From positions 1 to 63,717 of the forward strand of contig JAUCBJ010001439.1 of the NCBI GenBank assembly GCA_032718475.1: a stretch of 63,717 nt of DNA, written 5' to 3'. Below are positions 31,001 through 63,717 of this stretch, one piece after another. A program made the translations under genes and the position numbers. The notes under the pieces are model-generated. The model was not told where the DNA came from. It did no database searches and saw only the letters and a program-made list of their open reading frames with translations. Position 1 is the first letter of the stretch. Each line of letters begins with the position of its first letter. Source of the stretch: Nemertoderma westbladi. Lineage: Eukaryota > Animalia > Xenacoelomorpha.

Positions 31001-34000
31001 ACACCTGCTTATGCAGGCACCGACTACTTTGACGCCGATTTCTATTCCAACAGAAAGCGACAGCTACGGTAGAAAAGCGTGGAAAATCACGCAACTACTG
31101 GCTAACAAATTCTGGGAAATATGGCAAAACCATTATTTGCCCTCTATTTCTGCCAGAACAACTTGGTACAATAACACCCGCGCATTAAAGCCGGGAGATC
31201 ACGTGCTGTTGGCGGAAGTGAATCTAAAAAGACGCTTCTGGATAACAGGTGTAATTTTAGCCACACATCCATCTATGGATAGAGTGACAAGAACTGTGAC
31301 GGTACGGACAATTGACGGTCGTACAGTAGACAGACCGACTCAACGTCTCGTACTTCTTGAAGAGACTCGTAACGAGTCTGGAGACTACAAATTTCCACCT
31401 AATACTAGTAAATAATTAGGAGTTTACAAATAGATTTCCACATACCTGTACACCGTAGTAAGGACAGCGGTAGAATTCCATTGTCTTTATATGTGAACAT
31501 TGAGGGTGGTACCCTTATGTGTCACATAGGAGCGGGATTTGTAGGTATAAGAAATGGAATTCTACTTGGAACTCACAATATTGAGACATTTTCGAAATTT
31601 TAGACAATCCATTTGGATTTGAAAAATTTTTAAAATTTTCTCCAGTGAATAGATTTCAGGGTACAGTCGGGTGGAACTTAAAATTAGAGAAACAAGAGAG
31701 GAAGACTTGCGAGCCTTTCTTAAAATTTTAATTAAATTTTACACGGTCTTGTTTCAATAAGTTACGTCAATAAATAGACTCCCCTATATTTATTACTAAT
31801 TCTTGATTGCTTATTTTCTGATAATAGTTTGGGATCAAAAAGTGAGTATTTTAGACTCACGGCCAGTTTAGCCCAAATTCGTTTTTTACTTCGGCAAAAA
31901 AAATTTTAGATAAGAAGCAGCGTGTCATTAAAGAAACCCTAGATCTTAGGCTATGGGTAGGAGGTTAGAGCGTTGTCGAGCCCAAAGGGCAGACGAAACT
32001 CTCACGTCTCCTCACAACTAACTACAAACTCTGTTGTATTCCCTCTAGTAGTAATGATTATGTAACTACACCCCTAATTATGGAGAAAGGGATACAAGGA
32101 GAGCCGAGATGGGGATATGATATCCAAGAGGAGGCAGCAGCGCCATTCGAAAGATTTGGAGCCAAGGACTATACTATATTTGGTATAAAGGAATTATCGG
32201 AAAGTACAGCGAAACTCGCGAGAACTAAATATGACTCGAACGTATTAAAGAGAAGGCAAAACGCATTAAACGAAAGAATCGAAAGTTTGCGCCAAACCTT
32301 CAACGAACTTTACCCGTACGACGCTTTGTGTGATACGGGAGACATTAGCGAAGACCCCGATACTGAAATTAGTCGTTTGTATCATACCATGCAATACCTA
32401 AAGGCGCACGAACCTATGCCCGCGGTACGCGATGAATTCGATGGAATGCATCTTTACAGACGAACTCGAGGGGACGATAGAGAAACCAAGGAAGCATTTT
32501 CAGTTTATAAACTTTATTATCAATGCGGTTCTTGTATGCGCGAACAACGAAATGCGATTCCGATGCGTTTGAATAAGGAAAATCCCGAACCGATATTGGC
32601 GAGGTGTTCGAACCATCAACAACTACGCTACCAGGAAGGAGGGTATCCTTTATCGAATCCATATCATTCATTTGCTATGACCGGACCAAAGGCGGGAGAA
32701 ACTGTCATTTACCCACCTAAGGTTGTTGAACCCGATGTATTTGAACTTACGCTGGACGAGGCGAATCAGTCAACCCACGAAAAGAAAGAAGCTCTTAGCC
32801 TATACAGAGCCTACAAGGCTTTCGAGAAAGGTGAGATGGAAGAATGGGGTGGAAGACTCGCGAGCCTACCTTGCCATTGGACGTCACACGATCAAACTTC
32901 AGCTAAGGAGATGACACCGGAAGTTTTCGAGAGCATAAACTTTGCTCAAAACGTTATTCAGAGACTACAGATTGCATCCCCGGAGAGGCCAAGAGAAATG
33001 CAACCGTATAGTACTTCAACTACGAAACCATTGAGTACGACACTCAATTTCCCTATTAGTATACCAGTCCGACAGGATACGATGTACGAAATACCCATCG
33101 TGGATCATCCAGAAATCATTTCAAACTTGGAGTTTCTTCCTGCAGTTGTTTTCAGCGATATGAGTAAGATATATGATTTACGTAGACATATTACTCAAAA
33201 GGTCGTGTACAACGTTCCACCTCATATTCAAGATTTCAAGGAACTGGATAGAGCTGGTGCCGATATAGCTCCGAGTAATCTGAAAGGATATCTAACCAAG
33301 ACGATTCGTTTATGGATTGGAACCGGAACCTTCGAGTCGGATACAGATATTGCCGCGGATTGGCGAGGTAAGGTTATTCGTTTCGAAGATGATAAGGATA
33401 TAGAGAAGATTTGGCAACCTTCGGAAGAATTGTTGGATGAATGGAATAGAACGTTTAGATCGTTTCAGGAAAACGGTTACATGTTTTACGATAACGAGGG
33501 CGGCAGTCATCAGCAGAGTTTGACTTCTAAGACTATACAGATTAGAGCGGCGGACGGAGTCCTGCACGTTTTCAGTAGACAGAGGAGCGACAAACGAATG
33601 CCGATACCTCCAGCGAATACAAAGCGACACCATCTTATCACCGATATAGTAAAGAAGATGGACCAAGCTTGTAATATCGACGCTAGAATGCTACCGAAGA
33701 TGGTAAGAAACATGATTTTAGATAAAACTGTTGTAAAGATTGGATCAGGAGTAAGGGAGGATTTAATTAGCGACTTCGCCGGCATGACGGACAGCGATGA
33801 CCGACTACCGACACCTTACGTCGACACTCGACCTCTTATTTTGTGGTCTATAGAACAGGGATATTTTCGTGAGTACAATACTCAGAAGACCGGAACTGGA
33901 TACATTTCCTACCTGTTATTCAATTGGGATTATAAGGAAGGTAAGAGAAACAAGTATATTGAAACTTATGGAGAAGGTGATACTCCAGATATGAGTGAGT

Positions 34001-37000
34001 TTGAATCACAGCTTAAATGGAGAGGATGCGTGTATTGGGCTATTACGTCACCTCCAAGAGCGGTCTTACAATATTATTTAGCAATAGAGTCGTCAGTGAA
34101 TGTTTGCCTAATCGCCGACATTGTGTCTCGGACTCTCAAAAGACATCCACTTTGTCTCGGAGAAGATCATACGTTCTACATGGAAGGGAGAATTCGTACC
34201 GACGTGTTTAGACGATTCCTTGAACCCTTCTACAACTCCTGTCGCGAATGCAATGACAAGGATCTAAGTTCGTTTTACCCCTTACAGCAGCCTACTAACT
34301 GACTAACTAATATACTACCGTACCGGTACCGGGATCTAAGTACGAGTACAATACAGTGTGCCAGTACACAGTGCAGAATTGATGATATTGATAAATATAT
34401 ATATTATAATAATTCTAGCGATAAATGATACTTCTGTACTTTATTCTATTCCACTTATATTCGCTACATGGTAGCAGAGCGTTATGACTGTCAGTCGAAT
34501 GGGCTACAGACTGCTGTATTAACTTATTAATGGGCGCCTATTCAGCTATTGCTGTGTTGTCAACCTACAGACCTACATAACATACGGCCGATGTCTGTAT
34601 GTCTGTATACTGAAATTTACTCAACTGGAAACTATCATATATTTATGTATTACTTTAACTACGGTAACTACCGGCTGCTGGATGCCGCGCCACGCTGGTA
34701 GGCTATAAGTAAATTTAGATAAACAGAATTGCCAAATTATACCTCGTACTGGATGCTATTTATTACTACCGGCACCGGATACCGGTCCGGACATACACCA
34801 GTCATGCCAGTGCACAGATGTAATACGGTACGAAGATGGTTGAAAACTGCAAACTGTAAGTGCAATACAGCAATAAGAAGAAAACGCTGAAACGTAAAAC
34901 AAAAGCAAGGTTTGTAGAACATAATTAATTTGCAATTCAGCAATTAATAAATACTGAAATAAATTATTAGGCTTCATGGTGAAAAACATGATATCTGGAT
35001 ATTCACGAATTTATTTCAGCAAGTACTGAAATAAGGCCTAAACGCCTAATGAAATATTCCTTTGGTTGTTAACTAAGCTATCAACAACATTTTGTGAATG
35101 AATTGCAGAATTATACACCGGCACTTCAATAAACCGCCGGTACTGGCCTAATAGCCCACATTGTGACAAATCATTTGATTACTCTTAAGTATTAACCTAT
35201 AGGCCTATTCATATATGGGTCGGTTGTTAACAGAGCTATTAACATCCATTTTCTACTCCATATCGTTTATACAATAACTAAAATAAAATATATAATATGG
35301 AGGAGACAAAAAGATTAAGAAAATATAAACAGCAAAGAAATGCTGTCCGGACAAATATAAAGAAAGAGTTTACTGAAGCAGGTATTTTGTTAGATGCTGG
35401 CTCTCAGGTAAATATAGAAGATTTAAGAATTATATACGGTAAAATAAATAGATACTACACAAATTTAAAGGAATATGATGAAAAAATATTTGACCTTATT
35501 GAAGAAGTAGACGAGGATGAGGAAGTTTCGATTGTATCTACATTTGATAGCAATGTAAATGATTATTTAACTAAGCTTGATACTAGAGTAATGATGCTCA
35601 CTGAAAATATGAATACAACACTGGAACCTTCATATGTAGGCCGAAATCCCCCTGGTACATCTTTTAACACTTTCGTATCAGGTACCAGTGATATTAATTC
35701 TCATGTCAAACTCCCCAAACTAGAGTTTGAAGGTTATGATGGTGGTTTTTTAAAATGGAGAGAATTTTGGGATTCTTTTGATGCTGCGATTAATAGAAAC
35801 ACTAAATTGCAACCTGTAGAAAAACTGCAATATTTAAAGTCCAAATTACAGGGTGATGCAAAACAAGCTATTTTAGGCATTGAACTAACTAACGAAAATT
35901 ATGATGTCGCAGTAAAAATTTTAGAAGAAAGATTTGGTAACAAACAGTTTACTATTGATGCTCATTACTCTGAGTTAATGTCAGTTCCACCATCCTCGAA
36001 CAATACAGCAATGCTTAGAACAACATATGATATTTTAGAAAGACATTTTAGAAGTTTGATTGCTCTAGGGGAAGAAATAAACCAGGCTGTCTTTATTTCA
36101 TTAATTAATTCAAAATTCCCCACTCAGATAAAGGTTCAGTTGGAACTCCAAAAAGACCCTGAAGAGGATTGGACTGTTGATTCCTTGAGAAAACATATAA
36201 AGAAATTTATAACTGCCCGAGAGGCTGGAGAAAGATGTAGTGGACAATCTGAAAATAAAGAAAGGGATAAAAAACAGATGTCTATAGATCCGAAGTCTAC
36301 TAGTCCACACGCCTACAAGTCAACATATCCACAACAGAAGCCTATCTACAAATCAACAACAGAAGCACTAACTGTAAGTTCTAACCATGAGTTCACTAAA
36401 GTTTGTTTGTACTGTAAGGGTGAACATTGGAGTGACGAATGTAAAAAATATGATGATGCTGATTCAAGACGAATGCAAATTAAGGGTCATTGCTACATTT
36501 GTGCAAAGAAAGGACATAGTTCAAACCAGTGTAGAATTGATAAACCATGTGTCTACTGTAAAAAACGCCGTAGTCACCATAGAAGTTTATGCTTTAAACA
36601 ATTTCCATCTAAGAAACCAACAAGTGGCAACAGCAGAGGTTTTTCTGCAAATTTTGCATCAGTAGAAAGTTCAGTGCCTGCAACAATTGACATCAACTGT
36701 AATGATTTATCAGCAACTGACACAAACAACAGTAAAATTGAAAACTGTACATTAGCTTCTGATAATGTTGTAGTAATGCAAACAGCCTTAGTAAAACTAA
36801 AGAACCCTGTTGCATCGATGGATTATACTGTAAGAACTTTGTTCGACACTGGATGTAAACGAACTACTATTACTGAGAAACTGGCTAGAAAACTTGGATT
36901 GAAACTGTTTGACAAGAAAATTGATACAGTAAATACATTTGGTCGTAAAGAACCAACCGAAATTAGAAGTGCTGAAACAGAAGTTGTTGTTTTATGTAAA

Positions 37001-40000
37001 GATGGAACTTCCCAAATTGTTAATTGCAAAGTTGTTAACATAATAACTGGCGAATTACAACGCCAAACTATCAATATTAATAACTCAAACTTCTTATTAA
37101 GTAGTTTACCACTTGCAGACCCACAACCAATTAAAAACGAAGTGGTAACCATTGATTTCTTAATCGGAAATGACTATTATTGTGATTTTGTCACTGGTGA
37201 AAGAATTACTATCGATAAAGGAACATATTTGTTAGGTTCTAAGTTTGGATGGATGTTATCAGGTCGTTTTGAATGTGAACAGCCCAATGAACAAGCAAAT
37301 GAAAATTGCCTATTAACTATTGATAGCCCAAAAATACCTGGAACTCATGAAATCCATTCTTTAGAAAACTTTTGGAAATTAGAAACTATTGGTATTAAAG
37401 ATACAACAGTGAATGAAATTGATGACGATGTAGCTATGGAGTTATTTAATAAAAGTATTGCATATGATATCAAAGAAAATAGATATTTTGTTTCTTGGCC
37501 ATGGAAACATGCAGAAACTATTGATTTAGTAGACAACAAAGAATTAGCACTGGGTAGATTTAAAACCTTATTGCGACGATTTCAAAATGATGAAACTTTA
37601 TTCAAATCATATGCTACAATAATAGATAACCAAATAAAAAAGGGAATTATTGAAATGGTCGACGAAAATGAGTGTGAGAGTCACAAACTCCATTATATTC
37701 CACATCATCCTGTTGTTGATTACAAAAGATTATCAACCAAGGTCAGAATTGTATATGATGCATCTTCAAAGTCAAAGTCAAAAAATAAAAGTTTAAATGA
37801 ATGCTTATATAGAGGACCTTGCAAGTTACAGGACTTATGCAGCCTGTTATTACGATTAAGAATGTGGAATATTGTTATCTTAGCAGATGTTGAGAAAGCA
37901 TTTCTCCAAGTTGGCCTAAACCGAACCGAGCGGGATGTAACTAGATTTTTCTGGCTAAAAGATACATCCCTTCCATCAACAAAGGACAATATTGCAGTTT
38001 ACAGATTTTGTAGAATCTTGTTTGGAATAATCTCCAGTACATTTATATTAGCTGCAACCATTGATCACCATTTATCCCTTCCTAATGTAGACTCTCCAAA
38101 TGCAAAACAGTTACTCAATGATATTTATGTTGATAACATAATTAGTGGTAAAAATACACTACCAGAAGCAATTGAATTTTATAATGAATCAAAGAAAATA
38201 TTTAATGCTGCTTCAATGAACATTAGACAATATATGTCTAATTCTAATGAGTTTATTGAGAGTCTACCTGAAGATGATAACGTTGACAAAGATAGTTTAA
38301 AGGTGCTTGGTGTAACATGGAATAGAATATCAGATACATTATCTGTTAAAGGACCAACACAAACTGAATCTATGAATGATATCTATACAAAAAGATCTGT
38401 TTTTAGCATACATGCAAAAACCTTTGACCCTATGGGTTTCTTTAATCCTGTAACATTAGCCTCTAAAATATTCATTCAATCCTTGTGGATAGAAAACAAT
38501 AATATGAAGTGGGATGATAGACTAAATGAATATCAAATAGCACAATGGAAAGATATTGTAATTGAACTACAACAAATATCAACTCACCAAATACCACGCC
38601 GCTTTTGCTATGTTGATGATAGTAAAATAATATATGATATTGTGGGATTTTCTGATGCATCAAAATATGCATATGCTGCTGCAGTCTATTTACGAATCAC
38701 TAATCATGAAGCAATAAAAACTTGTCTAGTTTTCTCTAAAAATAGATTAACACCAGCAAAAACAATTGCTAAAAATGATATCAGTATTCCCAAATCTGAA
38801 TTACTAGGTTTTGTTATAACATTACGTGCAATGGTATTTGTTGCTCAATCATTAAATGTGACAATTACAAACAAAACATTGTTTACTGATTCACAATGTT
38901 GCTTAGATTGGTTAAAATCTCCAAGATCTATAAGCAAATTTATTGACAAACAAATAATGGAAATAAAATCACAAATAGATGTATGTTTTAGATATGTCAT
39001 TAGCTCTGACAACCCTGCTGATTTAGCTACACGTAAACAATCTGCAGTTGATATTAAAGAATCTCATTTATGGTGGGAAGGCCCAGAATGGTTGAAAGAA
39101 CCAGAAACTTCATGGCCAATATGGAACAGAATTCCAATTACTAACGAAATGATAGAAAATATATCAAGTAACAGACCACAAACCTTATATGAAGTTGGAT
39201 TACTTGCTTCTACTGTAATAAAGAACAGTCCCTTTGAGTTAGATATAAATAATTTCTCTACCTTGAAAAGATTAATTCGAGTCACTTCATGGATTCAACG
39301 ATTTATTAATAACTGTCGAAAGAAGACAAACATAAAAGACAAGTTCCTTCTACCTTCCGAGTTAGAAAAATCCAAACTAATGTGGGAACTTCATATCCAA
39401 AAACAATATTATGGTAAAATTATTATAGATATAAAACACAAGAAGAAGAACAATTTACAGTGTCAGCTCGGATTACAAATACATGAAAATGGACTTATTC
39501 ATTGCCATGGACGTTATGATTATGTGGACTTAATGGAAAGTGCTAAATTTCCAAAATTATTACCAAAAGCATCCAAATACACAGAATTAACAGTCCTAAA
39601 GTTCCATGTTGATGTTTTACATTCAGGAATATCTCATACGCTATCTCAAATACGCCAAGAATACTGGATACCACATGGTCGAACAGTAGTACGATCTATA
39701 ATCAGAAATTGCAAAATATGCAAAAGGAAGGATGGAGGACCTTACAAATCCCCCCTGATGCCATCATGGCCATCTATACGTGTTTCAAGTTCTAGTGCCT
39801 TTACCAATGTTGGTCTTGATTATCTTGGTCCGTTGTATATCAAGGATAACAATAATACAACTGTGAAGGTCTGGGGATGTTTATTCACATGTTTGACAGT
39901 TTGTTAGAGCTGTCCATTTGGAAGTTGTACTTGATATGACTACTGATGAATTCATATTATGTTTGAGGAGATTCTTTGCTCGCTATAGCAAACCTAAACT

Positions 40001-43000
40001 GATAATTGCAGATAATGCTCCACATTTTAAACTAGCCAAAACTGTTATTGAAAAAATGTGGGAGAAGACAATCACAAACAAAGATGTCCAAAGTTATGTT
40101 TCAACTGGTAATACTAAATTTAAATTTATTACAGCTTATGCCCCATGGATGGGAGGTGTATATGAAAGATTAGTTGGATTAGTGAAACGTGTAATGAAGA
40201 AAGTTATTGGTAAAGTTTGTTTATCACTAATTCAATTGCAAACTTTATTTACTGAAGTGATGGCTGTAATAAATTCCCGACCATTGGTGTATGTATCATC
40301 CGCAATCGACGACGGATTGACATTAACTCCTGCGCACTTTCTCTCTATCAACACAACAATTGGCACACCTACATCAGAAGATGATGACAATGCTAAGGAT
40401 TTAGATTATTATTTGATGAAACCAGAAAACTCTGCAAATAAGCTCATAAAACAATGGAAAGAAGGGAATAATCTTCTAGATAGCTTCTGGAATGTATTCT
40501 ATAAAGAATATTTGATGTCTCTTCGTGAACGATATCAATCTGATCTGCCCCAACCACGTGTAAAAGATTCTCACATCCCAAAGGTGGGAGATGTTGTTAT
40601 CATTAAAGACAAAGAGAAAATTGTAAAACCTCCAAGAGGTTCATGGAAACTCGGTCGTATTCATAAATTATTACCTAGTTCTGATGGTCAAGTTCGTTCC
40701 GTAAAAGTAAAGCTTCCATCAAAGAAAATAATAGAAAGACATATAACTCTTTTATTCCCAATAGAATGTGACACACATACAGATAGCTCAATAGATAAAC
40801 AATTAGACAGACCGAAACTAGCTATCAAGTCGAAACTGAAAGTAAATGAAGTCACATCCAGACCAAAACGAAAGGCAGCAATTAATGCGGAGAAGAATAT
40901 TAAGAACTGTTATGAAGAAATTGAATAAATTTTTTATTTATTTTTTAGTAATTTTTTGGTGTTGGGAATGTCACGAATACAATAATTGGTAAAAAAGTAT
41001 ATAAATTGTATTTATTTTTGGTGTCGGGAGTGTCGCGAATGCAATGACAAGGATCTAAGTTCGTTTTACCCCTTACAGCAGCCTACTAACTGACTAACTA
41101 ATATACTACTGTACCGGTACCGGGATCTAAGTACGAGTACAATACAGTGTGCCAGTACACGGTGCAGAATTGATGATATTGATAAATATATATATTATAA
41201 TAATTCTAGCGATAAATGATACTTCTGTACTTTATTCTATTCCACTTATATTCGCTACAACTCCGACGCTCAGTGTAATGCCTTTACTCGAGCAGGATTT
41301 AGTATATTTCGAGACGTGTATCTTCGCTGTGCGGGATCTCTTATCGAAAGACCATCTATGTTTACATTGTTACCCTATGAAGGAGAACGTATCGTGGAAA
41401 TTACGGATGAATCACGGCAGACGCGCGCGCCTATCGGTCACCTTGGTGATGAATTCGAAGTAACTACTACGATCGCCGACGATCCTTTAGAGGAACTTCT
41501 TGAGATAGAAAGGAACCTCCCGAAGAAATCTCAGACGGAGATTCGACAACTTGAAGCAACAGATGCTATAGTTTGTATACAACCTTCAGAAACCTACCAA
41601 CCCATAGACCCAGATGATTACGATTATAGTATGGGAGGAAGCGCTCGACCGATTGGAGACCTTATATACGAACGAGTGTGGTACCCTGCTAATACGATGT
41701 GTAGTAAATGTGGCGTCGCTGGACATCATATGGCAAAGTGCAGTGGAAAGCACATTACTACGACTCAGCTAATCTGTGGATGGTGTGGGGATCAAGGGTC
41801 TCATACCTTTTATACTTGCTGGAGATTTATGGCTCAATGTACTTACTGCAATATAAAGGGACATCGAGCATCTGAATGCCAACTAAGAGACATACCTTAT
41901 GAACACGAATCTGTAAAACTCGTGAGGAAATTATTTGATGAGTGGGAAGATTTAGCCGACGAACATGTATCAGCACAAAGAAGACGGTTTCCGATGAGAG
42001 CGCATCTCGGATTTTGGGCGGTAAATCCTCAAACGATGATGTCGGAAGGATATATCTCCGCTATGCCCCAATATGCCGAACTTATCGAGGTTGTCGATAT
42101 TTTGCCCCACGACAGCGGATTCCGAGTGGTGCGCGAGTATCTACTACAGATTCACCCGGATAACAAAAACACGTGGAATTTTCAGAAAGTCGTTAATCGG
42201 ATTACGTATGGTGAATTCGATCGTTTCCGAACTGAAAAGCGGAACAAAGGAGCTTGGTTAACCGTCGCATGGGCGTACCGAGCCGCGTTTTACCACAAAC
42301 GTATACGAGCGAGCGTATTCGAGGAAGAGGAGGTCCTAGAGGCGACAAATATACCAGCCACTCCGGTTGCGCCGTCTGCACGTCACCCTCGGGAGGACGG
42401 GCAGGGTAGGATCATACGGGTCCAAAAGGTGGGCCAACAATTAAAGAAAATTATTAATGTAGAAGAACGCAAGGGAGTTGAGCCGACTATTCGAGTTACT
42501 CGGGATACGGTATCACTTCCAAGAGAACCAGTAGGAGGATCGGGACATACACCAGCTGATCAACAGGGGGCGCAAGCTACTCTTGGGTCTGCGTCGTCCG
42601 CCTTTCGCGCGTTCCCAGACGTTCTACCAACTGTAGTGACGACTGATCGGTCACGAGGAATCGGTCGAGGTTTTGGGATGCCAAATAGACGAATTTGCGA
42701 GGAAATAGTCGCACCGTCTCTCAACGTCCCAAGTAAACCAGTGACTCGCCCCATTAGTCCCATATCGCGAGCAAAGTCACCTGTGCGCAGTTTTCGAGGA
42801 CGCGGCAGGGCTCGATCCACTAAGCGATAAAAGGGAGGGCAAGGGTGGACGGAAGACTCGTGAGCCTTTCTTGTGAATTTGTGATTTATTTGAATTTATA
42901 TTTATATTTGTGCTTATTCCGAACTTATGCAATTTGTATTGTTCCGAATTTATGAAATTTAGAAATAAGAACTTATATTTAGTAAAACTTATATTTAGTA

Positions 43001-46000
43001 AGACTTATATTTGTAAGAATTTATATTTTATATTTACGTGATTATTTCGAACTTATGCAATTTATATTATTCCGAACTTATGCAATTTATATTGTTCCGA
43101 ATATTATGCAATTTATATCTTATAAGCAGTATTTGTATTTACAGTGAAATAGAAAGTAAGAGTAGATGGAAGACTCGTGGGCCTTTCTTATAGTTTCATT
43201 TGTAAAGTGTTATATTTTGTATTTAGAAAGTTTTATAGTCAGAAAGTTTTGTGCTTAGAAAGACTCATATTTGTAATTATTCCAAACTTATGCAATCTAC
43301 ATTTAGGTACGAAAGTATTTGTAATTACTTGAATTTATGCAATATTTGAGATGCAATAGATTTATATTGGTGAATTTAATTTAGATTTATATTGTACTTA
43401 CTTAGTAAAGCCTTAAATACGTAAAGTTTGAATTTGTAATTATTTTTGTATCGAATCATTACGTAGAAAGGAAGTATTGTTTGAAATTTAATTGTAAATA
43501 TGTAAGTACGCCCTAAGTATTCTATAGTTTAATTGATTATTGGTGAAAACCGTATATTTTATGCACGATAATATCCTGTTTTCATGGAGCGGTATAGAAT
43601 TATATTCCCTAAATGCCGTGGATTTTCAAAATTTATTTTTATTCGAATTAACTTTGTAAAGATTGCTTTGAGTTCTCATTCGTATTGGTTCTATCATTTG
43701 TGTACTTATCGGTCAAGTGGTTCAGTAGCTCAGTCGGTAGAGCGTTGGAAATTATATGTGTAGTAGGTATTGAGTTCGAATCCTAGTAAGTGCGAATTAT
43801 TTTTTGTACAGAATTTCAACTCATTTAAATTAACCGCTACAAATTAATTGCATTTGTCTGTACCAATGAGACTGTAGTTATTTGATTGTAACCAATGTCG
43901 TGCAAGTTATATATTAGCTGGACCAATAGCTATCTTTAAAACCCCGTTAGAACCCATAGAACAATCGAGAATTTTCTCGATTGATTGCGGCACAAATTTG
44001 CTATATAAAGGTGCGATTTGTTCATTAGTTATCAATCTTATATCTCAATACTATTACACTTACAATCTACTTCTCAGATTATCTTATCAATATTCTGTCG
44101 CGCTTAGTTTATTTCAGATTACATTGTATTATAATTATATCTTCTGTAATAAAGTCAGAATATTCTCTCAGCTTTTCTATCTGTTTTACTATGAATTCAC
44201 TACGGTGAACAAACTCAGGGACAGGATGGCCGGCTAGAGATCGGGCCGCAGCAATGAACGGGAACATCACGGGAATGTAGACGAGAGACAACCCGCAATA
44301 CCATCTTGAGTAATTCGCCCATCGCCTGAAAGGTTAGACAGCGTTCGACGCCTTGCTACCTAGGTATAAGACCAAAAGATCAAAAGGTAGACGTAGTGAC
44401 ACGCTGTAAGCCTAAAATTACATCATAGGGACTGTACTGTCTTGATTCAGGAAAACCACAGTAGACCTTCACATTCCTACGGGGGGAGGGAGAGAGAGCA
44501 GGCAGATACTAGTACGCAGATAGGACGTAGGCACACCGGTACGAAGCATACAAATTGGTAGGGTGCAGCAAACTGTACGCCTAACTCTTGCTAAGTGCAG
44601 GTGTGTGTGCGACTATTTGTAGTACGACAGTGTCCATTGCATTAGAACTTGTAGGCTAGGGGGGTTGCTGTGTTTTCACCTGAATTGGGATTGTACCGTT
44701 CAGGCGGTAGGGCAGTTTACACTAGGCGCAAATAAATTGAGGCTATTAGGGATACTAACATCTACCGTGTCCCCGCCAACGCCCTAATAGGAAGTTACCC
44801 GGACTACCTGGGTGACTAAAATTCTAGATAGGAGCCAGGATAGCTATTAGTAACTGTACGCCTACAGTAGTAAACTAACACATCTCTTCTTAGTATCAGG
44901 GACCTGGTACCTAAAATTGCCGAATTCTGGGCGTAGCATTAACCCTATGCCTGAATTTGAGTCCTGGAAATACGCAAGAGGGGAAGGAACCTTATCATTC
45001 GTGAGTATTGGACCTACAAGTTACAAAATTAGAATATTCGTAAAATGCACACCGTACCCAGTAATTATATATGTGAAGGAGCAAAACTGTTTTGACCGTT
45101 CAGAATTAACACACGCGCGTTAGAAATTATTTACACCTCAAAATATATAAAATTAACTTTGTCCGTACTGTGCTTTGCCCGCTAGTTAGACATCTCCAAA
45201 TCTCTGCCTGTACCTAGCTAGCGTCTCTTTGCCCAACCATATAAATCACACCGCGGCAAAGTATATGAGCCTCTTAGTCCGTCAGTGAGTCAGCCTGATT
45301 TTAGGATTCGCTGCGCGGGATTTTGTTTTATCGAAGTTTGTCTGCTCGTAGACTGTTTTCTGCCTCACCGGTTATAAGAGATCGATACTGCAATATATTC
45401 GCTTACTTAGAGTTTACTGTTTTGGTGAGAAGGTCGGATTTATGATTTGATTCACAAACTTTACAGTAGGATATTGCAGGTATTGTTGCTGTCTCTTCCA
45501 ATAACCTGATTGGCTGGATTCGTCTCGGACTTTGGTTATTGTAACTACCTGATTGGCTGGTTTCATCTCGGACTTTCGTTATTGTAACTACCTGATTGGC
45601 TGGTTTCGTCTCGGACTTTGGTTATTATAACTACCTGATTGGCTGGGTTCGTCTCGGACTTTGGTTATTGTAACTACCTGATTGGCTGGTTTCGTCTCGG
45701 ACTTTCGTTATTGTAACTACCTGATTGGCTGGTTTCGTCTCGGACTCTGGTTATTGTAACTACCTGATTGGCTGGTTTCGTCTCGGACTTTCGTTATTGT
45801 AACTACCTGATTGGCTGGTTTCGTCTCGGACTTTGGTTATTGTAACTACCTGATTGGCTGGATTCGTCTCGGACTTTGGTTATTGTAACTACCTGATTGG
45901 CTGGTTTCATCTCGGACTTTCGTTATTGTAACTACCTGATTGGCTGGTTTCGTCTCGGACTCTGGTTATTGTAACTACCTGAATGGCTGGTTTCGTCTCG

Positions 46001-52076: not shown

Positions 52077-55000
52077 TGTTCGCGCTTTCAGACCTTTGGC
52101 AGTTTAACCCACCAAATTAAGATGTCTTCTAGATATTAAATCGGTTTTTAGTCTATGACAAGTATTTGATTCACTACACTAGTCGAAACCAATCTGTGCG
52201 CGATCATTCACCCGCTGGATATTCCCGGGAGATTGGGTTCGACGGTTTAATTTTATTGCTATGTAAGCCTAATGTATTATTCGACTGACAGTACTATATA
52301 ATCTCTGACAATATTATTCACCTTCGGTAATATTAACAGTTCCTTTAGGACGTGGCGCTTTATCTATATAAACAGAGTTATGACTTAAACTACTCACAAC
52401 GATATGGCTTAATTATAATTCACATATATGGCGCATTCTTTAGGAATTGCTTCTTTAACAGACTCACTCATACACAATGCTGCACAATACTGCACACTAA
52501 TCTGCCAATCTTCACTGATTTTAGTCACATATAAAAGGAACACAGACTGACTCATGTAGGGTCTATCAAATAACATTAGATTCACTTCAAACCACTTTAA
52601 CATAAGTCACAATCGTTTATCTGTAACCCTTCTCTCTTACCTTCGGTATATCAAGAATATTGGGTTTCGGGGTTATTTATCGTTATTCCAAATATATTTA
52701 TTCATCAACCATATTATGAAGAACTGACGGTAAATAGCAGTATAAAATGAATGTAAACACTGATTGTTATGAGTTTGCAATGTTTCAGCAGTCAGCATGT
52801 ATGATCAGTCAGCAGTGATTCCATGAGTTAAAGGATATATGCCCTTTATAATTAAACCTACTAGTGTAAGACTAAAAACTGAAAACACGGAGGTGCCAAA
52901 GCCGGTTCTTAGGCTCTGGGCAAAAACATAACACTGAACTACTGAGTTTCTGTATATACCTCCAACACAAAGACAACAAACGCTCTGATTGGTCAACCTG
53001 AACAACGAGAGAACAGAGAAACAAAGAAACGTCGACGTGGCAATATCAGCTGCTAGCTGTCGTCAAGGTAGCGACACTGTTTTCAAGAGTATCGAGCTTT
53101 TACGTCACGGAATTACGGATTATGTCCTCTAAAGTACAAATACAGAAGAAATAGCTTTTATGTCCGCTAAAACACCAGTACAGCAAGGACACGGCCTTTT
53201 TATGCCTGGTAAACCAACTACAGAGTATTTTACGGGAAAAATAAGGAAAAATAACCGGACAATTCAGCAAAAGCTTTTACACCGCTCCCAGAAAATGGGA
53301 TTTTCAGTCTATAAAATATAAAAATCACAGTTTCTAAAACATAAAGATACTCTAAACAGTTAGTCTTTCTTACGCAGACGGCGTTTACGCAGTTTTTTGA
53401 GGCTAGCAAGAGTCTTTTTCTCTTTGGGGGGAGCCACTTTACTAGGAGGGCCATAACTCCTGGGTGAAGGGTGCAATATGATTGCATCAGAAGGTGTAGG
53501 ATTGTGGTCGGGGTATCCGCCGTTTCGATATGCTTCTCCTCGAGCTGATTTTCCTCCGCTCGTAGCTGGATACGTTCATCCAAAAACTCTCGCAGAGAAT
53601 GGGTTGTCTAAGTGCGATATCTTCTTAGAGATTCTGGATTTCACAATCGAACTGAGATAAAGACAATTCGTTTATCGCTTGGACTTGCTGTTATAACTTA
53701 CGTTTATCTGAACAAACGTAGGTTTCCTTTCTGATCTTTGTAGAATAGCGTTTAACTCGTTTGGTACAACGTTCTCCGCCACTCTGGTGACAGGTTATAT
53801 CGTGTCAAGCCGGGACGATGGTAAGGGTTAAACGGCGATATTAAATGTCCGCGTCACAATCCGGCTAGGTAAGATGGGCGGCTAGCTAGAAATCACTGTC
53901 GGAGTGTTACCGATTAATTGTTAGGGTAGCACTAGATCTTTGAACAGTGAATACAGTCCGCGAGGATCCGCAACACCACCAGGATCGCAGGTCTGAGGTC
54001 CAACTAAGGAATGAGGAGGTTTGACCGAGTATTCCGGGACTCTGATCGTAGGTTTACTCCAGGATCGTTCGAGCCGAGTGAGCATAGGTGATACGTCAAC
54101 AAGTTTCGGTTTACGTGGATGTTTATGTCTTTCCGTTTATTAGTTGGGTCTAGGGCATTTATCGTAATAATACCAAAGACGCACGTCTGGTAGGGTAAAC
54201 GCGGGTGATATTTATTTGTTGTTACAATGCTTCTATCAAGAATTCCAAATATATGTTGGAGTTACCGCGTCCATTTGTTTCTTTAGTGTCTTTTCTTTCG
54301 AGTCGATTTCGAATAGAATTTTCGCATTCGAATTTCAGTTTATGGTTCCGACTCCGCTGGGCAGGATATATAGTCGACATAGCCTGTATTGTGTAAATCG
54401 ATAGGATGACCAGTAGTTAAGAAGACCATATACGTACCATTACGCTGCGTATATCGAGCAGCGAATTTTCTATAGTCCAACTCGCGCGAGCTGCTCTTGG
54501 GACATTGGCGGTTCGATATAACGACCGTCGTCCTCCGCAGCAGTTGGACTAACGTCGCCGCGTATTAAGCTATCAACAAACGCTTGTAAAAGTAGAGTAT
54601 ATCGCTCCCCGATACTAAGACCATCTTCTATCAACTCCGTCATATCTGCTATATATGAGTTTATCCATATTATAATGAGTTTATATTTAGGCGAGCGGGC
54701 GTCGCTGCCTACCCCAATCAACCCCCGGACAGTATGAGATCCTCAGCGCTGATGTGTCGTCGCCGCTGTACTTTCGCCAACGACGTAGCCGCACAACGAC
54801 AACGACAACCGGCACAAGTCACTCAACTGTCCGTCCCAAAGGCTTAGATGTACTTCAGGTTTTCCTTGGAGAGTTAGGTTACTTTTACGATTGCGACTAG
54901 CTACTGTAAACACACTTTAGCAGTAACATTCACCTATAAACTCACAAATACCACACACACAACTTGTCACAAATTACACACATTCGGGCCATTTGTCCAT

Positions 55001-58000
55001 TAGTCAATGCCTTCCAGAATGTCACTGTATTATTATGTATCCTTGGATACTAGTAGTGCGCTATTTATTCCCTATGCTATTCAATGGGACAAGCTTTCTA
55101 TTGTTCTTTTGACTCAATTCTAATTCTAGCGTGGTTGTTGCTATGGTGACATTATGCAAAGCTAGCGGTAGAATTAGGGTGATTCCAATGCATACAGATC
55201 TGGGATGTTATTTAATAGTATTCTTTAATAGTCAATGTCCTGTTTATACATGACTTTAAGAATTTTATCGGCTATTAACTATGTTTGGGAGACTTTCGTA
55301 CACGCATACGCATAATAATATAAATCTCCGCTCCCTTGATCTATTAATTTATGGAATTTTGGGAATGTTATAAATCGCGTAAAATGGCAATTTATTAAAT
55401 TCATTAAAAGACATGAATTTAAATTTATTCCCTGAAATTTTATTATTTGATAATTAAATGGGCATATTTTGATTCTAGAACATGTCTAGGGACACAAGAT
55501 CCTTAATTCTATGACAATTGTCTCTTTAAGAATATCGGTAAATGCTACGATATCTTAATTGACTAGAATTGTTGAAGGAGCTGAATTTTACAGATTTTGA
55601 CTTATTTGATTTGTAAATATTAACTAATTAATATTTGAGATGGGCACCGATTTATTCCAGAACTTGTCTGGGGACGTTAACCACTGATTCTAGAATTTGT
55701 CTTTCAAGTATATCGGTGGGTGCCGCGATATCTTAATCGACTAGAATTACAGATGGTCAAAAGGTTTAACAGATTTATGTGCGTTTTACGCTACTGTTAG
55801 AGGGACATCACGCTACTATATGTATTATTTAATATACGGTATGAGAGCAATATCGCACGAAGCAATGTCAGTGTGAAGAGGCAAGTCGTTTCCAAGGTCT
55901 ACCCAGAGCTTGGTTTAGCCGAGACACGAGGATCTGAACTTTGCATTCCTAATACTCTGCCTACCAATAATACTTAAATATAGTAGTGGCTTTATTGTAC
56001 TTTAATAAGTACGGACATTTCATCTTACTGTAGTCACGTATTTATAATATGATACGGACAGTAAAGAAAGAGGAAAAGAATTATTTCTTGCCGTCGCATT
56101 AAATATAATATATACGTAATTAAGTAATAAACGCGAATATATATTGCACTAATCTACTAAATAATCGCTAAAATAACATTCTACTGAATAAAATTAAAGA
56201 AAACGATTATAATAGAATTACATAGTAATACATACATAAATATAAAAATAATAAAATAATATAAAATAATAGAGTCACACACCCACTCCATATGTTGTTA
56301 CGTTATGGAATCCCTAGATGTTTGAAGGATTAGGGAGGTGGTCGTGGGAAGAGAATCTTGCCTTCCACAGTTTCCGGAGAGTCCTCCATTCCCTTCCGAT
56401 AAACACAAACGACCGACTGGGTGATTGAGTCGCTGCATCCTGAATACAATTCCAGGTTTCCTCTTCGTCCTGGAATAGTGACGATAGAAACATCGCTCAA
56501 AGTATATGACGGCGTCACAAAGCCGATTCCAGGAGCTATAGTGGTCCGTCGCTCTCTGCAGGAGAGGTGGGAGTCCCTGAGAGACGTCTGATGTTCCAGA
56601 GCTCCAATCGCTCTCTCTGATCTTCATGAAGGATCCACTCGCGGTGGGGAGGCCCAGATCCACAGCGTCGTCCCTGGCAACATGTAATACCGACAGATCT
56701 ATCCCGGGTTCAAATAACTCCGATCCACCCGTCCGGGTTTCAGGTTCGACTTTCTCCGCTCCCTTGGCTGGTCTAATCTCAGTCGGAGTAAGATGGGGAG
56801 GCCATTCATTCTCCTTACTCAGGAAGTCGGGTTCACCTAACCGGTCTGTAGTATCTGTCAGTTCTTGAGGAGTTGCTCCTCTGGAAGCGATGTCAGTTGG
56901 GTTAAACTTCTTGGGGCAATATCTCCATTGATCTACATTGGAGCTAAGATTGTCATTATCTGAGGAGTGTGGTGTTCCCTCAGTTGGGTCGTCTCCCTCA
57001 CTAGTATCATCTTCCCATTCACTCACCTGGCAGACGCGATCTTGAAGCAGTCTTTCTCTGAGCGTTCTACGGGAAGGTCCAGTAAGGTACCAACCTACTC
57101 TAGTTCTTACCGCATAGGTCTGTAGTGGCTGCGGTTGAGCAGGTCGTTTCTCTAATGTCTCCAGCGCCTCATGCGCGTTTTGGCCGATGAGTATTTGCAC
57201 TCCAGGATAATCAGTCTGGAATCGAGGTATGTTAAGATGTTGGATGCTCTCATCCTCGTCCCAATTATAAAGGTCTGCTTGAGTAGTAGCGAAGTTCTTT
57301 ATAGCCACCATTTTCACTGACCTTATACTGTATTCTCCTAGTTTATCCTGTGGGGTGGACAACTCACCTATATAATAGTCGGCAGCTACAGTAGAATTCC
57401 AAACCTGCATGATCCCTGACATGTTTAGCTTGGTTCGGAACTTGGGTTGTCCAGCAAAGATGACTTCGGCTAGTTCTTTATCGATGAATGTTCCTGTGCT
57501 ACCGGAGTCCAGGAGGGCGTTCACTATATAGCTCTTCTGAGGTCCGTGGACCCGTAACTGGACTACAGGAAATTCTCGGATTCCTATATTGGAAGTTGGC
57601 GCTTTCCAAGATGGTTGTTGATCGGAAGTAGTTAAGGTAAGGTCGCTGTCTGTGTCTTTCTCATACTTGAGTGCTCGATACACTGCGGTGGTGTTTATTA
57701 GGTAACAGGATTCGTTTTGGTCGGAGAACTCGTCCGTATAGAATCCTTCCATCTCAGATTGATCAGTGTCGTTCACATCACTGAATTGGACATGTAGTTC
57801 GGACTCACTTACCTGACTCGGGCTGTTTCGTTCGAATTCCGTGTGCAACAAGATATGATGTTTTGCGCCGCACTTCGCACACCTTGCGTCGGAGTTACAG
57901 GTTCGCCGTTGGTGTCCTCGTCTGAGACAATTATAACACAACCGCTTATCCCACATGACTTCACGTCTATCCTTTAGTGATTTCCTCAGGAATTTATCAC

Positions 58001-58493
58001 ACGCATTTAAACGGTGGGGCCCGTCGCACAGCACACATTTGGGCTTGATGTTACTTACTTTAACATGTGCTGTGTGGTGCACACTTGTTCTTTCCTCGGG
58101 CTTTCTCACCTGAATTCTTTTAGGAGACGTAGGAGGGGTTTTTTGTACCGGTTCCCTTCTGTCATTGGGTCGAGACTTGGATTTACTTACCTGATCTTTA
58201 GGCATTTTATTGACATAAGATCTGTCAGTGTCTTTCCCGCTGTCCTCTCCTTGAGAAGTTTGGCTTTCACCGTCGTCGGTATAACATACTGGTGTTACCC
58301 TTCTCCTAGAAACGGGTTTCTCACTTACCTTACTTTCCGCTGTCTTCTCTCTGGACTGCTTTATGAGCTGTAATTTCACCTCGCTATCCAGGAATGACAT
58401 GAGATCAGCCATGGTAGGGTCTCGTTGTTGTTGTTCCATCATATATAACACCTTCTTGTCCCAGCGTGTACCTACTCCACCCTTGGGCAAAGT
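52077..58493 (-). mobile_element. Defective long-LTR BEL element BEL-C: 3' LTR 52077-53281, internally deleted, cut at 58493 by BEL-D
   Basis: LTR TGTAAAAG..GCGAACA on the minus strand, preceded by TTTTCTGGGAGCGG (same PPT type as BEL-A); gag-protease ORF on the same strand. Confidence 0.8.
56298..58490 (-). pseudogene. BEL gag knuckles plus protease fused to the RNase H C-terminus (RT deleted)
   Basis: CVLCDGPH..C, CYNCLRRGH..C, CAKCGAKHH; ALLDSGS; TRVGWYLTG; then WRYCPKKFNPTDIASRG with no YxDD region. Confidence 0.88.
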
Positions 58494-59892
58494 TGTAAAA
58501 GCCTTTGCTGAATTGCCCCGTTATTTTTATTATCTTTTACATTAAAATACTCTGTAGTCGATTTAATAAGTGTAAGAGACCGTATTATTGCTGTATCGGT
58601 GTTTTTAGAGGATCTAAGACCTATTTCCTCCGTATGTGTACTGTGAAAGGCATATTTTATGATTCTATGGCAATTCGTGACGCAAAGGGGTGATAGCTAC
58701 TCTTGAACAGTAGTTACTATGACTACGGTTAACAGCTGACATTCATACGTGTTGATTTCCTTTGTTCTACGGCGTCTCTCAGTTCAGTCAGCCAATTAGA
58801 GCGTTTTTGTGGCTCCTTGTACAGAAAATTTCCGAGAAATGACGCAATGCCTATGTGCAGTGTTTACATTCAGTCCTGAGCCAAAGAAAGAACGGCTTAG
58901 AAGTATTTTGTGCTTTACTGTTTTAGCCGTACACTAGTAGGCTTAATCATAAGGACATATATCCGTTATCTAACTTGACTAACCTAACTCAATGCAATCA
59001 ATGCATACTGCAGTACTGCATACACTGCATACTGTGTAACACTGTGCATACTTTATATTGTTATACTGCTATTTGCTGTCTGTACTTCATAACCCCGAAA
59101 ACCCAATATTCTTGATATACTGAAGGTAAGAGAGAAAGGTTATACATAACGATTGTGACTTATGTTAAAGTGGTTTGAAGTGAATCTAATGTTATTTGAT
59201 AGCCCCTACATGAGTCAGTCCGTCTTCCTTTTATATGTGACTAAAATCAGTGAAGATCGGCAGATCAGTGTGCAGTATTGTGCAGCATTGTGTATGAGTG
59301 AGACTGATAACGAAGCATTTCCTAAAGAATGTGCCATATATGTGAATTATAATTAAGCCATATCGTTGTGAGTAGTTTAAGTCATAACTCTGTTTATATA
59401 AATAAAGCGCCACGTCCTAAAGGAACTGTTAATATTCCCGAAGGTGAATAATATTGTCAGAGATTATATAATACTGTCAGTCGAATAATACATTAAGCTT
59501 ACATAGCAATAAAATTAAGCCGTCGAACCCAATCTCCCGGGAATTATCCAGCGGGTGAATGATCGCGCACAGATTGGTTTCGACTAGTGTAGTGAATCAA
59601 ATATTTGTCATCGGCTAAAGTGATTTATTATCTAACAGACATCCTAATTTGGCGGGTTAAACTGCCAAAGGTCTGAAAGCGCGAACAATAACGGATATAG
59701 CTTCTTTATTGCAGTAAGCAATAAAGTCGAAAGTACCGGTCGACCGGTAACCAGTAGGCCTGACTGCCTGATCATCCGGACCGGTACCTACAGCAGTATT
59801 ATTCGATTTTGATTGTTATATACCAGTAGGCCTTAATAATTAATCAGGGACTGCAGCCCTGGTTTTTTATTGAGATTTTTACTTATTTCTGT

Positions 59893-60520: not shown

Positions 60521-61846
60521 TATTTATTATTCAGAGTTTATGCGATTATTCGCAACATTCAAGTCCCCAAGTTTGTTCCTACAGTAATTGTGTTTGTTAT
60601 ACATACCGCTATAGTTAAATTAACCTCGGTACTACACGGGCTGCTTGGCGTAGGTAAAGACTGGTGATTTTGTGCATCGGTCACTCCAGCAGATGCCGTG
60701 GTTCTTTTAGCTGTTCAAGTATATTTAATTACTGATTATCTGTTGTACAAGTACTCGTACCTAATTTAGGGTTTAGTGTACAGTGCTTTCCGAAAATAAT
60801 TAGTGTAGGCATTATATTTGTGTTGTAAAGTGGTTGATAGGCACATTCGATTAGCTCTATTAACTTCTAGGTAGGAACACTCGGTGATACATAACGTAGA
60901 ACCTATAGCGATACGGCTATAGGTCGTCAGGCGGTGGTATTTTTCTATCTGGACAACGCAGTGTATTTACTACTACGTATTATTTTCAAATACCGCAGTA
61001 CCCTGTCCGTTGTAATAACCAGTTTTCTAACCCTTTGTTAGGCTGGTTTGTAGACTTCTTGTAAAATTACCCTAAAAATTCGTATTTTGTGTTTTTTGTA
61101 AATTTTTGCATTTATTTAGAGATTGTAATCTCACCCGAATTGTACGTAATTTGTAGTATTAAGTAACTTAGGTAAATTAGTAATATTTGTTTTAGTGTCT
61201 ATAAGTAACACTTCACTGAAAGCGCACCGCTTTGTGTAGTGATTACTCCCCAGAAATAATAACATTTATTTCAAACATTGACAAAACCCATTAAAACGGG
61301 TATATATATATTATAAATCAAATCTAACGATTTATAAATAGTAGGCCTACCATACAACCATTAGGTCTCAATATCAGTTGGATTACTGCTTAAATAACGG
61401 TAATAAAGTAAGTTAAAGTAACCAAGTAACCCTAAAGTTCAGAAATTCAATTATTCCAAAATAATTGATATACCGGTATTTACGATAGGCCTATTATTTA
61501 TTTCTATAAATCTAGGCTGAAATTATACCGGTACTTGTAATTAATTCTATTCCAGAATTATATATACTACAAATTGTAAGCTGTATACCGGTATTCCGAT
61601 AGGCCTATTATATATTTATATATATTTGTGCTAAAATTATACCGGTATTCTGTGATAAACCTAGTCTGTAATAATATTTATATACTTATATATACTATAA
61701 GCATACCGGTATTTAATATATTATATATATCACGCTACACTGAGTAGCAGTACCGGTAATTAATTACTAGGCTAGCAGTTAATACTGAGTTACTAGACTT
61801 ACTCAGACTGTAATACAGCAGTAGACATTCAGCGGTATACATAGTC

Positions 61847-63717
61847 ATGTCTGATACTAAGCAGAACCTGTCAGACAGTATATTAGATGTAACTATCTGC
61901 GACTCAGATAGAGACGTACAACCGTCTGGTCGTAAATCCAGTTCACCTCCCACTGTGAGGAAGGTCATCCCTCCAGTAGTAATAACAGAACCTAGGCTAG
62001 TCCAACATCGTAGGTCTATCATAGGCACCCGAGCTCAGGTCAAGCGGGACCAACAAGCCGCGGAACAGCAACAACCCGCTAGTCAAGAATCTATTCCTCA
62101 GCGGCCCAGCAGCTCCAGTAGTGAGGATACTGTAGAGCTGACGCTCGAGCGCGGAACAGAGATGACGGATGCGGTTTATACGGATCCCCTTCTCATCCTT
62201 CCTGCAGCCGTGCTCACTGGGTTATTGATCGCGGTGGAAGAACACCAGATCGATTGGGCGAGAAGTCAACGGTCAACTAGAGATAGTTACGCGGGATACA
62301 CGAGTGAAGAACTGAAGTCTATTGTCGAGTCGCAATGGAACTTCCCCGGACCCGGACTCCCGTTTGATTTATCAGAAGCTGCCTGGGAAGACATACACCG
62401 GATGGGAGTAGCCAAGGAAACCATCGATCCAGCTGTGTGGAAGAGGTCCGCAGCCGGATACGCACAGGGATTCTTCAGCTCTATGGAGCGAGTAGAAAAG
62501 CAACTTTTTCAACAACCTCAAGGACCTCAAGAGCAGGGATCGCTGCTTTATCAAGTTAGAGAAAGAGTTTTGCGGATTAGGCTAATCTTATCCGCCTTTG
62601 AGGAGGCTTCTAAAAGAAAACAAGACACGTCGTTGCAAGTTGCCGTAAAAACTTGGTTTCAACGGGTGAGTCGCCAGGTTCAAGGAGCAGCTCGGTGGAA
62701 AGCTCAGTTGGAGGAGCGCTCAACCCATGGAGAATCGACGGACGCTACTTTTTCCCAAGTGGAAAGTGAAGTGACGGCAGAGAAACCGCATAAGAAGGAC
62801 GCCATTGATATCTATCTGTCAGACTATCAGCGTTTTTTGGGAGATGAAGAGTTGAGGAGAAGGCTAGAGGGACTTAGCCCTAATAGCGAAGGAGCCAAAC
62901 TCGTGTTAGATGCGATTGATGTGGATAGGTTAGCGGCGAACCAAGCTAAATTCGATGAACAACTCCGCATCGCTAGAGAACAAGAAGAACAAGTAAAGAA
63001 AAAACGTATAGAAGATAGAAAGACAACGGCAGTGGCAGCAGCAGTGGCAGCGGCAGAAGCCGAAAGAAAAGCGGCACTGGCAATAGCAGAGGCAGTGGTA
63101 GAAGCAGAACGGAGGGCATCTGAAGAGGCAACCCAACTAGAGTTGGAAATTCTTCAAGAGAAGCAGGACAACTTCAATAAACAGTTAACAGCGAGCAATA
63201 TGCGGATGATGAGTCGATCTACTCCCAAGAGACAGGGGTATACATCATCTGAGGAAGGCGATACCACCGACACTGAAGGCGGAAGAAATCGATCTCGCCT
63301 AAGCAGACGTAAAAGAACATTCCACCGTCAGAAATTGCCTGATTTGCCTCCAGCTGTTAGAAGGCAACTAAATAACACCAACTTAGGTAGTACAGAGCCC
63401 ACAGACCAAATAATTACAATAGAAAGACTCCCTACTATAGTAGATGAGCCTGAAATAATTAGGCCTGTTCTTGAAATCACCCCTTCGGTGATAGACACAC
63501 CTGTGCTCCCTGAAGCTACTTCTAAATTCCCTCTACATAGCACTAAGCTACCTGTGCCCAGTAGAACTGCCCAGGCGACAGTTCAGGTCCTGGACCCCGA
63601 GCGAAATATTACTGATTTGTCGCCCGTTGTCCCTCGTCTGCCCGCTACGACGTTGGCGGATCCCGTTTCGGCGGTTGATTGGGTGGACGAGAGACGGCGG
63701 GGGATGGACATTCTCCT
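61847..63717 (+). CDS. Probable BEL-D Gag N-terminus (partial; absent from the ORF track, apparently because no stop occurs before the window end)
   Basis: ATG at 61847 (MSDTKQNLSD..); long open frame with Ala/Glu coiled coil (AVAAAVAAAEAERKAA) resembling BEL-A ORF1. Confidence 0.7.
   Translation, partial: MSDTKQNLSDSILDVTICDSDRDVQPSGRKSSSPPTVRKVIPPVVITEPRLVQHRRSIIGTRAQVKRDQQAAEQQQPASQESIPQRPSSSSSEDTVELTLERGTEMTDAVYTDPLLILPAAVLTGLLIAVEEHQIDWARSQRSTRDSYAGYTSEELKSIVESQWNFPGPGLPFDLSEAAWEDIHRMGVAKETIDPAVWKRSAAGYAQGFFSSMERVEKQLFQQPQGPQEQGSLLYQVRERVLRIRLILSAFEEASKRKQDTSLQVAVKTWFQRVSRQVQGAARWKAQLEERSTHGESTDATFSQVESEVTAEKPHKKDAIDIYLSDYQRFLGDEELRRRLEGLSPNSEGAKLVLDAIDVDRLAANQAKFDEQLRIAREQEEQVKKKRIEDRKTTAVAAAVAAAEAERKAALAIAEAVVEAERRASEEATQLELEILQEKQDNFNKQLTASNMRMMSRSTPKRQGYTSSEEGDTTDTEGGRNRSRLSRRKRTFHRQKLPDLPPAVRRQLNNTNLGSTEPTDQIITIERLPTIVDEPEIIRPVLEITPSVIDTPVLPEATSKFPLHSTKLPVPSRTAQATVQVLDPERNITDLSPVVPRLPATTLADPVSAVDWVDERRRGMDIL

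Follow-up and report, generated by a model that had tools for sequence, protein, structure and literature searches.

Complementarity between a putative primer-binding site and its own LTR in the retrotransposon BEL-D and in BEL/Pao relatives

We found that the putative primer-binding site (PBS) of the retrotransposon BEL-D, which lies flush against the 5' LTR and has no TGG, is complementary to a segment of the element's own LTR; that a variant of this PBS carries two changes matching the corresponding site of a related LTR, that of BEL-C; and that the same signature is present in BEL-A and in relatives outside the window. The self-complementary site is confirmed as a real feature. As judged from the sequence, BEL-D probably works via Tf1-like self-primed reverse transcription, in which RNA of the element replaces a host tRNA as primer, and self-priming of some kind, the cis and trans variants taken together, is very likely. 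Self-priming has been demonstrated in Tf1, and a few lineages of Gypsy and Copia elements are predicted to use it; if true here, BEL/Pao would be the third LTR superfamily concerned, and BEL/Pao elements lacking a tRNA site would be explained. Added here are a prediction made beforehand, which came true at two positions, and a cross-species set of elements with interleaved spliced and contiguous primers.

Elements of the window and the BEL-D site

The window, i.e. the whole stretch of 63,717 nt that was analysed, is repeat-rich, animal-type DNA according to self-comparison, open reading frames and Pfam; its elements are given in Table 1. A BEL/Pao-type Gag-Pol is present for BEL-A and BEL-C. 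BEL-A has the domains Pao peptidase, DUF1759 and DUF5641 and the order Gag-protease-RT-RNase H-integrase, and the homologs of the BEL-C frame are all (13/13) Pao-peptidase (BEL/Pao) polyproteins. LTR terminal inverted repeats, purine tract and target duplication were found as a full set in BEL-A, and BEL-C is represented by its 3' LTR and the tract. The RT, purine tract and 3' end of BEL-D lie beyond the window. The BEL-D open frame has no Pfam match, no counterpart in 90 related loci and no likeness to the first ORF of BEL-A, and no longer homolog was found among 7988 candidates. Because its own ORF has no detected relative, BEL-D is taken to be BEL/Pao through LTR kinship with BEL-C only. 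The 3 kb between the BEL-C frame and its 3' LTR (53282-56300) gave no tblastx match in the 90 loci, BEL-A or BEL-B.

Table 1. Features of the window
Feature	Position	Strand	Remarks
Gypsy element	7053-12098		TGG-type site; left LTR without first bases that right LTR has
BEL-A 5' LTR	19839-21877	+	TAT...ATA; target duplication ACCTG
BEL-A tRNA-like stretch	19964-20035		in U3
BEL-A candidate self-primer	20844-20854	+	11 nt; purine run behind it, able to pair with U5 end
BEL-A putative PBS	21878-21888	+	no TGG; 12-bp hairpin next
BEL-A in-frame TGA	23991-23993		between first frame (440 codons) and gag-pol frame (2473 codons)
BEL-A extra 3' frame	31969-34299 + 41220-42827		no Pfam match; split by nested BEL-B
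BEL-A 3' LTR	43593-45503		
BEL-B	34240-41259		nested within BEL-A
BEL-B PBS	34469-34480	+	ordinary TGG type; control
BEL-C 3' LTR	52077-53281	-	1205 bp; preceded by purine tract 53289-53282
BEL-C homologue of primer site	52839-52828	-	10/12 identical to BEL-D site
BEL-C frame	56298-58493	-	Gag zinc knuckles, protease, then jump to RNase H end; RT absent
BEL-D 5' LTR	58494-59687	+	1194 bp, TGT...ACA; head-on insertion in BEL-C gag-protease frame
BEL-D candidate self-primer	58958-58969	+	12 nt; exact complement of 59688-59699
AATAAA	59508-59513	+	likely poly(A) signal
BEL-D putative PBS	59688-59699	+	flush against LTR; no TGG
BEL-D predicted hairpin	59704-59726	+	9 bp; just behind PBS
BEL-D open frame, start	61814-63715	+	continues past window end

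Both edges of the BEL-D LTR were fixed without recourse to pairing. On the right, the BEL-C 3' LTR aligns up to the ACA ending at 59687 and diverges from the next base, and four contigs of the sequencing run X5 depart from the sequence behind 59687. On the left, the LTR aligns with the start of the BEL-C LTR behind its purine tract, and uninterrupted BEL-C copies depart at 58493 in 10 contigs of X3 and 3 of X4. The sequencing runs consist of contigs, none of them recorded as RNA; four of the seven runs were analysed (X1, X3, X4 and X5), and X1 may be the source of the window itself. An alternative BEL-D boundary with a TGG site was ruled out by the LTR alignment, the X5 contigs and the position of the nearest TGG behind the LTR, which is at 59860, 172 nt on.

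The PBS and its complement in the LTR, spaced by 718 nt, are exact reverse complements and each is single-copy in the window. A 12-nt match at offset 0 was obtained in 3 of 20000 dinucleotide shuffles of the BEL-D LTR, and in 13 of 20000 when offsets 0-5 were allowed. Among 2085 leader positions, 59688 is the sole start reaching 12 nt; one other match, of 11 nt, lies at 59796. The initial annotation had stated that the PBS is complementary to its own LTR over 12 nt and that the pairing ends at the LTR edge, and both statements were borne out, the register being flush with an edge that had been fixed independently. The hairpin predicted behind the PBS has an energy of -9.4 kcal/mol, and 1 of 500 shuffles was as low.

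BEL-A has the same arrangement with a primer-PBS spacing of 1023 nt and the nearest TGG 144 nt behind the LTR. Its 11-nt pair at offset 0 was equalled in 8 of 20000 shuffles (51 of 20000 for offsets 0-5), and 3 other positions of 752 in the leader likewise reach 11 nt; none of 500 shuffles was as low as its hairpin behind the PBS. In the control, BEL-B, the TGG stands 0 nt behind the LTR and the self-complement is at most 5 nt. Splicing is not needed in BEL-D or BEL-A, where a spliced primer scores 7 and 8 nt only, with 42 of 100 shuffles doing so in each case. The letters of the BEL-A and BEL-D pairs are unrelated while the pairing persists at offset 0, as had been noted from the start. BEL-D had on these grounds been called an independent replicate, which holds for the letters but probably not for the origin, the signature being spread over related BEL/Pao elements.

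Variant PBS and recombination between BEL-C and BEL-D

From the primer-site homologue in the BEL-C LTR, a different PBS had been predicted for BEL-C, and the predicted variant was found in three of the four runs (X1, X3 and X4). Over 59640-59740 just two substitutions are listed, 59688 A>T and 59692 C>A, and these are precisely what the PBS needs to pair with the site in the BEL-C LTR; the substitution table leaves out changes near contig ends, and 'only two' is valid for the middle of the stretch. The contig counts for 59688 A>T and 59692 C>A were 51 and 47 in X1 and 18 and 18 in X3, the former change being counted too high through 3'-LTR flanks. In X4 both changes are on one 83-nt contig without any other difference, which starts at 59645 and is D-like there; X5 has neither change and no contig over 59692-59699. 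Two random changes among 12 positions would match the predicted ones about once in 594 cases (66 pairs of positions, each with 9 pairs of letters). The BEL-C-type LTR site would be 718 nt away, beyond contig reach; we infer that the variant PBS is linked to it and that pairing is kept via these compensatory changes.

Identity between the C and D LTRs is 66% over 58494-58920, 86% over 58921-58957, 58% over 58970-59092 and 95% over 59093-59687. Joints of D-type U3 to C-type sequence were observed in all four runs, at 58921 and 52878, just upstream of the primer site, so that the LTRs are mosaic. The initial annotation had treated BEL-C and BEL-D as separate families, which does not hold in the full sense. 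Because of the shared LTR part with 95% identity, the D-like leader into which the variant PBS leads and the joints in 4/4 runs, we concluded that BEL-C and BEL-D are recombining subfamilies and not independent families. The LTR variants diverge directly behind 58969, with joints from 58970 and 58975, and the leader variants, seen as loose ends, begin at 59698-59699; therefore some 11-12 nt are kept on either side. The PBS is thus altered at 2 of 12 places within otherwise shared C/D sequence, a pattern consistent with selective maintenance of pairing, or with a primer that is itself copied to form the next PBS. Such copying takes place in Tf1.

The loose ends at 59676-59704 also reveal a third variant of the LTR end, again with another PBS, in X1, X3 and probably X4. 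The PBS of this third variant has no complement in the window.

Related BEL/Pao loci

The RT-RNase H of BEL-A showed 39-44% identity to the nearest listed proteins, of which the named ones are from marine invertebrates. An alignment of 45 sequences yielded the best 80 of at least 527 metagenome loci confirmed in 16 of 64 parts, to which 10 further loci were added; two scans of viral contigs gave 0 loci, and the exact LTR-end pattern had 0 matches in metagenome contigs. A repeat flanks the coding region in 39 of the 90 loci. For 18 of them the LTR end was fixed by eye from the repeat, and these were scored for contiguous and spliced complements; 10 loci with the start only were submitted to a blind search, and 11 were unused.

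The self-complement signature was found in 13 of the 18 loci, with the pairing ending within 0-4 nt of the LTR end. Three loci (L034, L039 and L085) have contiguous 11-nt matches. The other ten (L008, L015, L019, L021, L025, L029, L033, L081, L082 and L088, including two sister pairs) have matches of 10-15 nt that would form when a GT-AG intron is removed from the LTR, each equalled in 0-2 of 100 shuffles. L050 and L080 have TGG-type sites, and L072, L086 and L090 were assigned to neither class. When each LTR was compared with its own PBS, 15 of 21 elements (the 18 loci and three window elements) reached 10 nt or more, against 7 of 416 swapped pairs; 2 of the 416 reached 11 or more and one scored 12. 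If splicing was permitted, the BEL-D LTR reached 11 against the PBS of another element. The sisters L081 and L082 are weak evidence of covariation, because their swapped PBSs still score 10-11 when any donor is allowed. In the blind search for LTR ends, 7 of the 10 loci had a spliced match of 10-11 nt among the top two, with 26-63 ends tried per locus and no shuffle control; these loci, some of them close kin of counted ones, were not counted as evidence.

Trees were built with FastTree for 92 rows and, as a quick analysis, with IQ-TREE for 26 of the 92 rows, without named BEL/Pao clade references; BEL-C, whose frame has no RT, and BEL-D, whose RT is beyond the window, were left out. Of the 13 self-complementary loci, 12 fall into a 78-row group of the 92-row tree that has support 96 and contains no TGG-labelled row; L033 and the long-branched BEL-A stand outside this group and share an open fork with L050 and L080. 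These two TGG-type loci nest among self-complementary rows in the free 26-row tree, where holding the 14 self-complementary rows together was not rejected (p-AU 0.563), a single origin of the trait being neither rejected nor demonstrated. Spliced and contiguous labels are interleaved in the 92-row tree without clustering, since 339 and 500 of 500 shuffles were at least as low.

A wider reading, which we put forward tentatively and hold to be somewhat doubtful, is that a large BEL/Pao lineage of aquatic invertebrates has abandoned tRNA priming for an internal primer. This primer would in most members be put together by the host's splicing of the LTR intron, would be contiguous after intron loss, and would drift together with the PBS, because the primer itself is copied into the next PBS, as a private key separating subfamilies with a common U5 and leader. 

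The upstream copy in L039 (1-330) has a splice-acceptor-like edge and the downstream copy (6694-7103) has a contiguous primer. Intron-bearing and intron-free LTR forms thus stand in one contig, and short-read assembly could have mixed two subfamilies. The BEL/Pao elements of L081-L090 come from contigs whose titles name bacterial genomes; they are most likely stretches of animal host DNA within those assemblies.

Priming and comparison with known systems

Under cis self-priming, 59688-59699 would serve as the PBS and anneal to the segment 58958-58969 within RNA of the element itself. The RNA would be cut behind base 58969 by the element's own RNase H, and minus-strand DNA synthesis would start from the resulting 3'-OH, as in fission-yeast Tf1. 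On this reading, the contiguous site of BEL-A, BEL-C and BEL-D would represent the intron-free state in a lineage many of whose members assemble their primer across a splice junction. The primer site would have to be transcribed, upstream of the PBS, and R would have to reach beyond the cleavage point, as far as the AATAAA near 59508, for strand transfer to work. This AATAAA is kept in BEL-C and BEL-D, downstream of the primer site, and is likely to be the signal. A poly(A) hexamer is located at or behind the primer 3' end in 13 of 17 LTRs and none was found in the other 4; BEL-D and BEL-A have an additional upstream one. The predicted pairing probability of the central primer:PBS pair is 0.55-1.0 in BEL-D over six assumed RNA starts and 0.71 in BEL-A. 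TATA-like motifs lie upstream of the primer site by 11 nt in BEL-C (TATAAA, absent from BEL-D), 31 nt in L033, 124-135 nt in L019, L021 and L039, and 468-596 nt in BEL-A, and from these positions the primer is possibly internal. The TATAAA of BEL-C, if used, would place the site upstream of the RNA start and would count against cis self-priming.

Self-priming may instead proceed in trans, with a primer from the 3'-LTR end of the RNA, from a co-packaged second RNA or from a short LTR-only transcript. We consider this unlikely, although several observations suit it: the site occurs in both LTRs (at 20844 and 44470 in BEL-A), the motif distances in BEL-C, BEL-A, L019, L021 and L039 contrast with about 30 nt, and the D/C joints just upstream of the site in 4/4 runs, together with a PBS that differs within shared sequence, fit exchange between co-packaged RNAs. 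Against it, ten relatives have their primer only after splicing while the LTR keeps the intron, which fits a spliced 5' end and an unspliced 3' end, and the predicted cis fold is favourable.

Alternatively, the duplex might be a regulatory or packaging structure (a translation switch, a dimer contact or masking of poly(A)), with another primer such as an internal tRNA piece. Half-tRNA primers without TGG are known in Copia lineages, as described in part of PMC6317226, and an alternative pairing of the BEL-D leader would cover the AATAAA at 59508 (-19.1 kcal/mol), but the latter pairing is not clearly above shuffles (4/60). Moreover, the primer-PBS pairing is flush with the LTR end in BEL-D and BEL-A and close to it in the 13 relatives, and the PBS letters vary freely among A, C, D and relatives and track the LTR, a freedom that a fixed host RNA as primer would not leave. 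A structural role without priming seems to us quite improbable. That the inverted repeat arose by chance, or through a single copying error confined to this insertion, is strongly disfavoured: long LTRs do occasionally give 11-nt matches, as at the other leader positions of BEL-A and BEL-D and in two swapped pairs, but the rarity of the match at the exact edge, the predicted variant and the 13 of 18 relatives leave very little room for it.

Cis self-priming has its model in Tf1. In Tf1, Tf2, Tj1 and the Tf1/sushi group (Ty3/gypsy chromoviruses), the PBS stands directly behind the 5' LTR, is complementary to about 11 nt of the own LTR and involves no tRNA, according to the accessible parts of PMC7175516, PMC4600332 and bioRxiv 10.1101/2022.12.06.519325; the last of these describes a three-duplex 'pretzel' around the PBS. 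In Tf1 the primer consists of the first 11 nt of the RNA. BEL-D resembles Tf1 in the flush PBS with its complement in the own LTR, in the primer 3' base that faces the first base behind the LTR, and in the kept piece of 11-12 nt, equal to the Tf1 primer length given in the accessible part of PMC7175516. Unlike Tf1, the elements belong to BEL/Pao, BEL-D by LTR kinship only, and the BEL-A polyprotein, with its Pao peptidase, DUF1759 and DUF5641, is not of the Tf1/sushi group; the primer-PBS loop is 718 nt in BEL-D and 1023 nt in BEL-A; the motif positions suggest that the BEL primer may be internal and not the RNA 5' end; and in many BEL/Pao relatives the primer arises only through splicing. In BEL-D neither of the Tf1-type flanking duplexes stands out from shuffles (7 and 4 of 60 as low), and a local hairpin follows the PBS instead; in BEL-A one of the two duplexes does (0 and 20 of 60).

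For Tcn1 (Ty3/gypsy) and for TAR, Houba and Osr-1 (plant Ty1/copia), self-priming has been predicted by a rule that asks for at least 10 nt beginning 0-5 nt behind the LTR, and the available text of PMC6317226 does not mention a splice-junction form of primer. The same rule picks out BEL-D (12 nt) and BEL-A (11 nt), both at offset 0, in another superfamily and kingdom. The ICTV profile of Belpaoviridae specifies a PBS of 18 nt that matches a host tRNA, puts the LTR at 0.2-1.2 kb and calls replication poorly understood (PMC8742986). The elements conform to it in their LTRs, purine tract and 5-bp target duplication and in the domains and domain order of BEL-A. They differ from it in that BEL-A, BEL-C and BEL-D have no tRNA-type 18-nt PBS, whereas BEL-B, L050 and L080 do have the TGG type, and in the 2-kb LTR of BEL-A. 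A literature survey, mostly of titles and abstract openings and with subscription papers, GyDB and Repbase entries outside its scope, returned no report of self-priming in BEL/Pao, and term look-ups in the available parts of PMC6238403, PMC3118150 and PMC8556966 gave no mention of PBS or priming. Silencing by tRNA fragments is described for mammalian ERVs in part of PMC7472051; by extension, elements without a tRNA site would lack its target.

Rfam gave nothing for the BEL-A LTR and leader and two weak bacterial matches for those of BEL-D (E 0.79 and 0.89), which we regarded as chance. The tRNA-like stretch in the U3 of BEL-A, with a predicted pairing (-25.3 kcal/mol) to the hairpin that follows the PBS in the leader, contains what we take by eye to be A-box and B-box look-alikes; ARAGORN and Rfam found no match in it. 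The long extra 3' frame of BEL-A is split by the nested BEL-B (Table 1). The in-frame TGA may be a read-through signal or a mutation. The LTR of BEL-A ends in TAT...ATA rather than TG...CA, and the insertion is inside a 43-bp satellite with a perfect 5-bp target duplication. Between the two LTRs there are 4 base differences and a single tandem duplication of 128 bp, and the insertion is therefore young.
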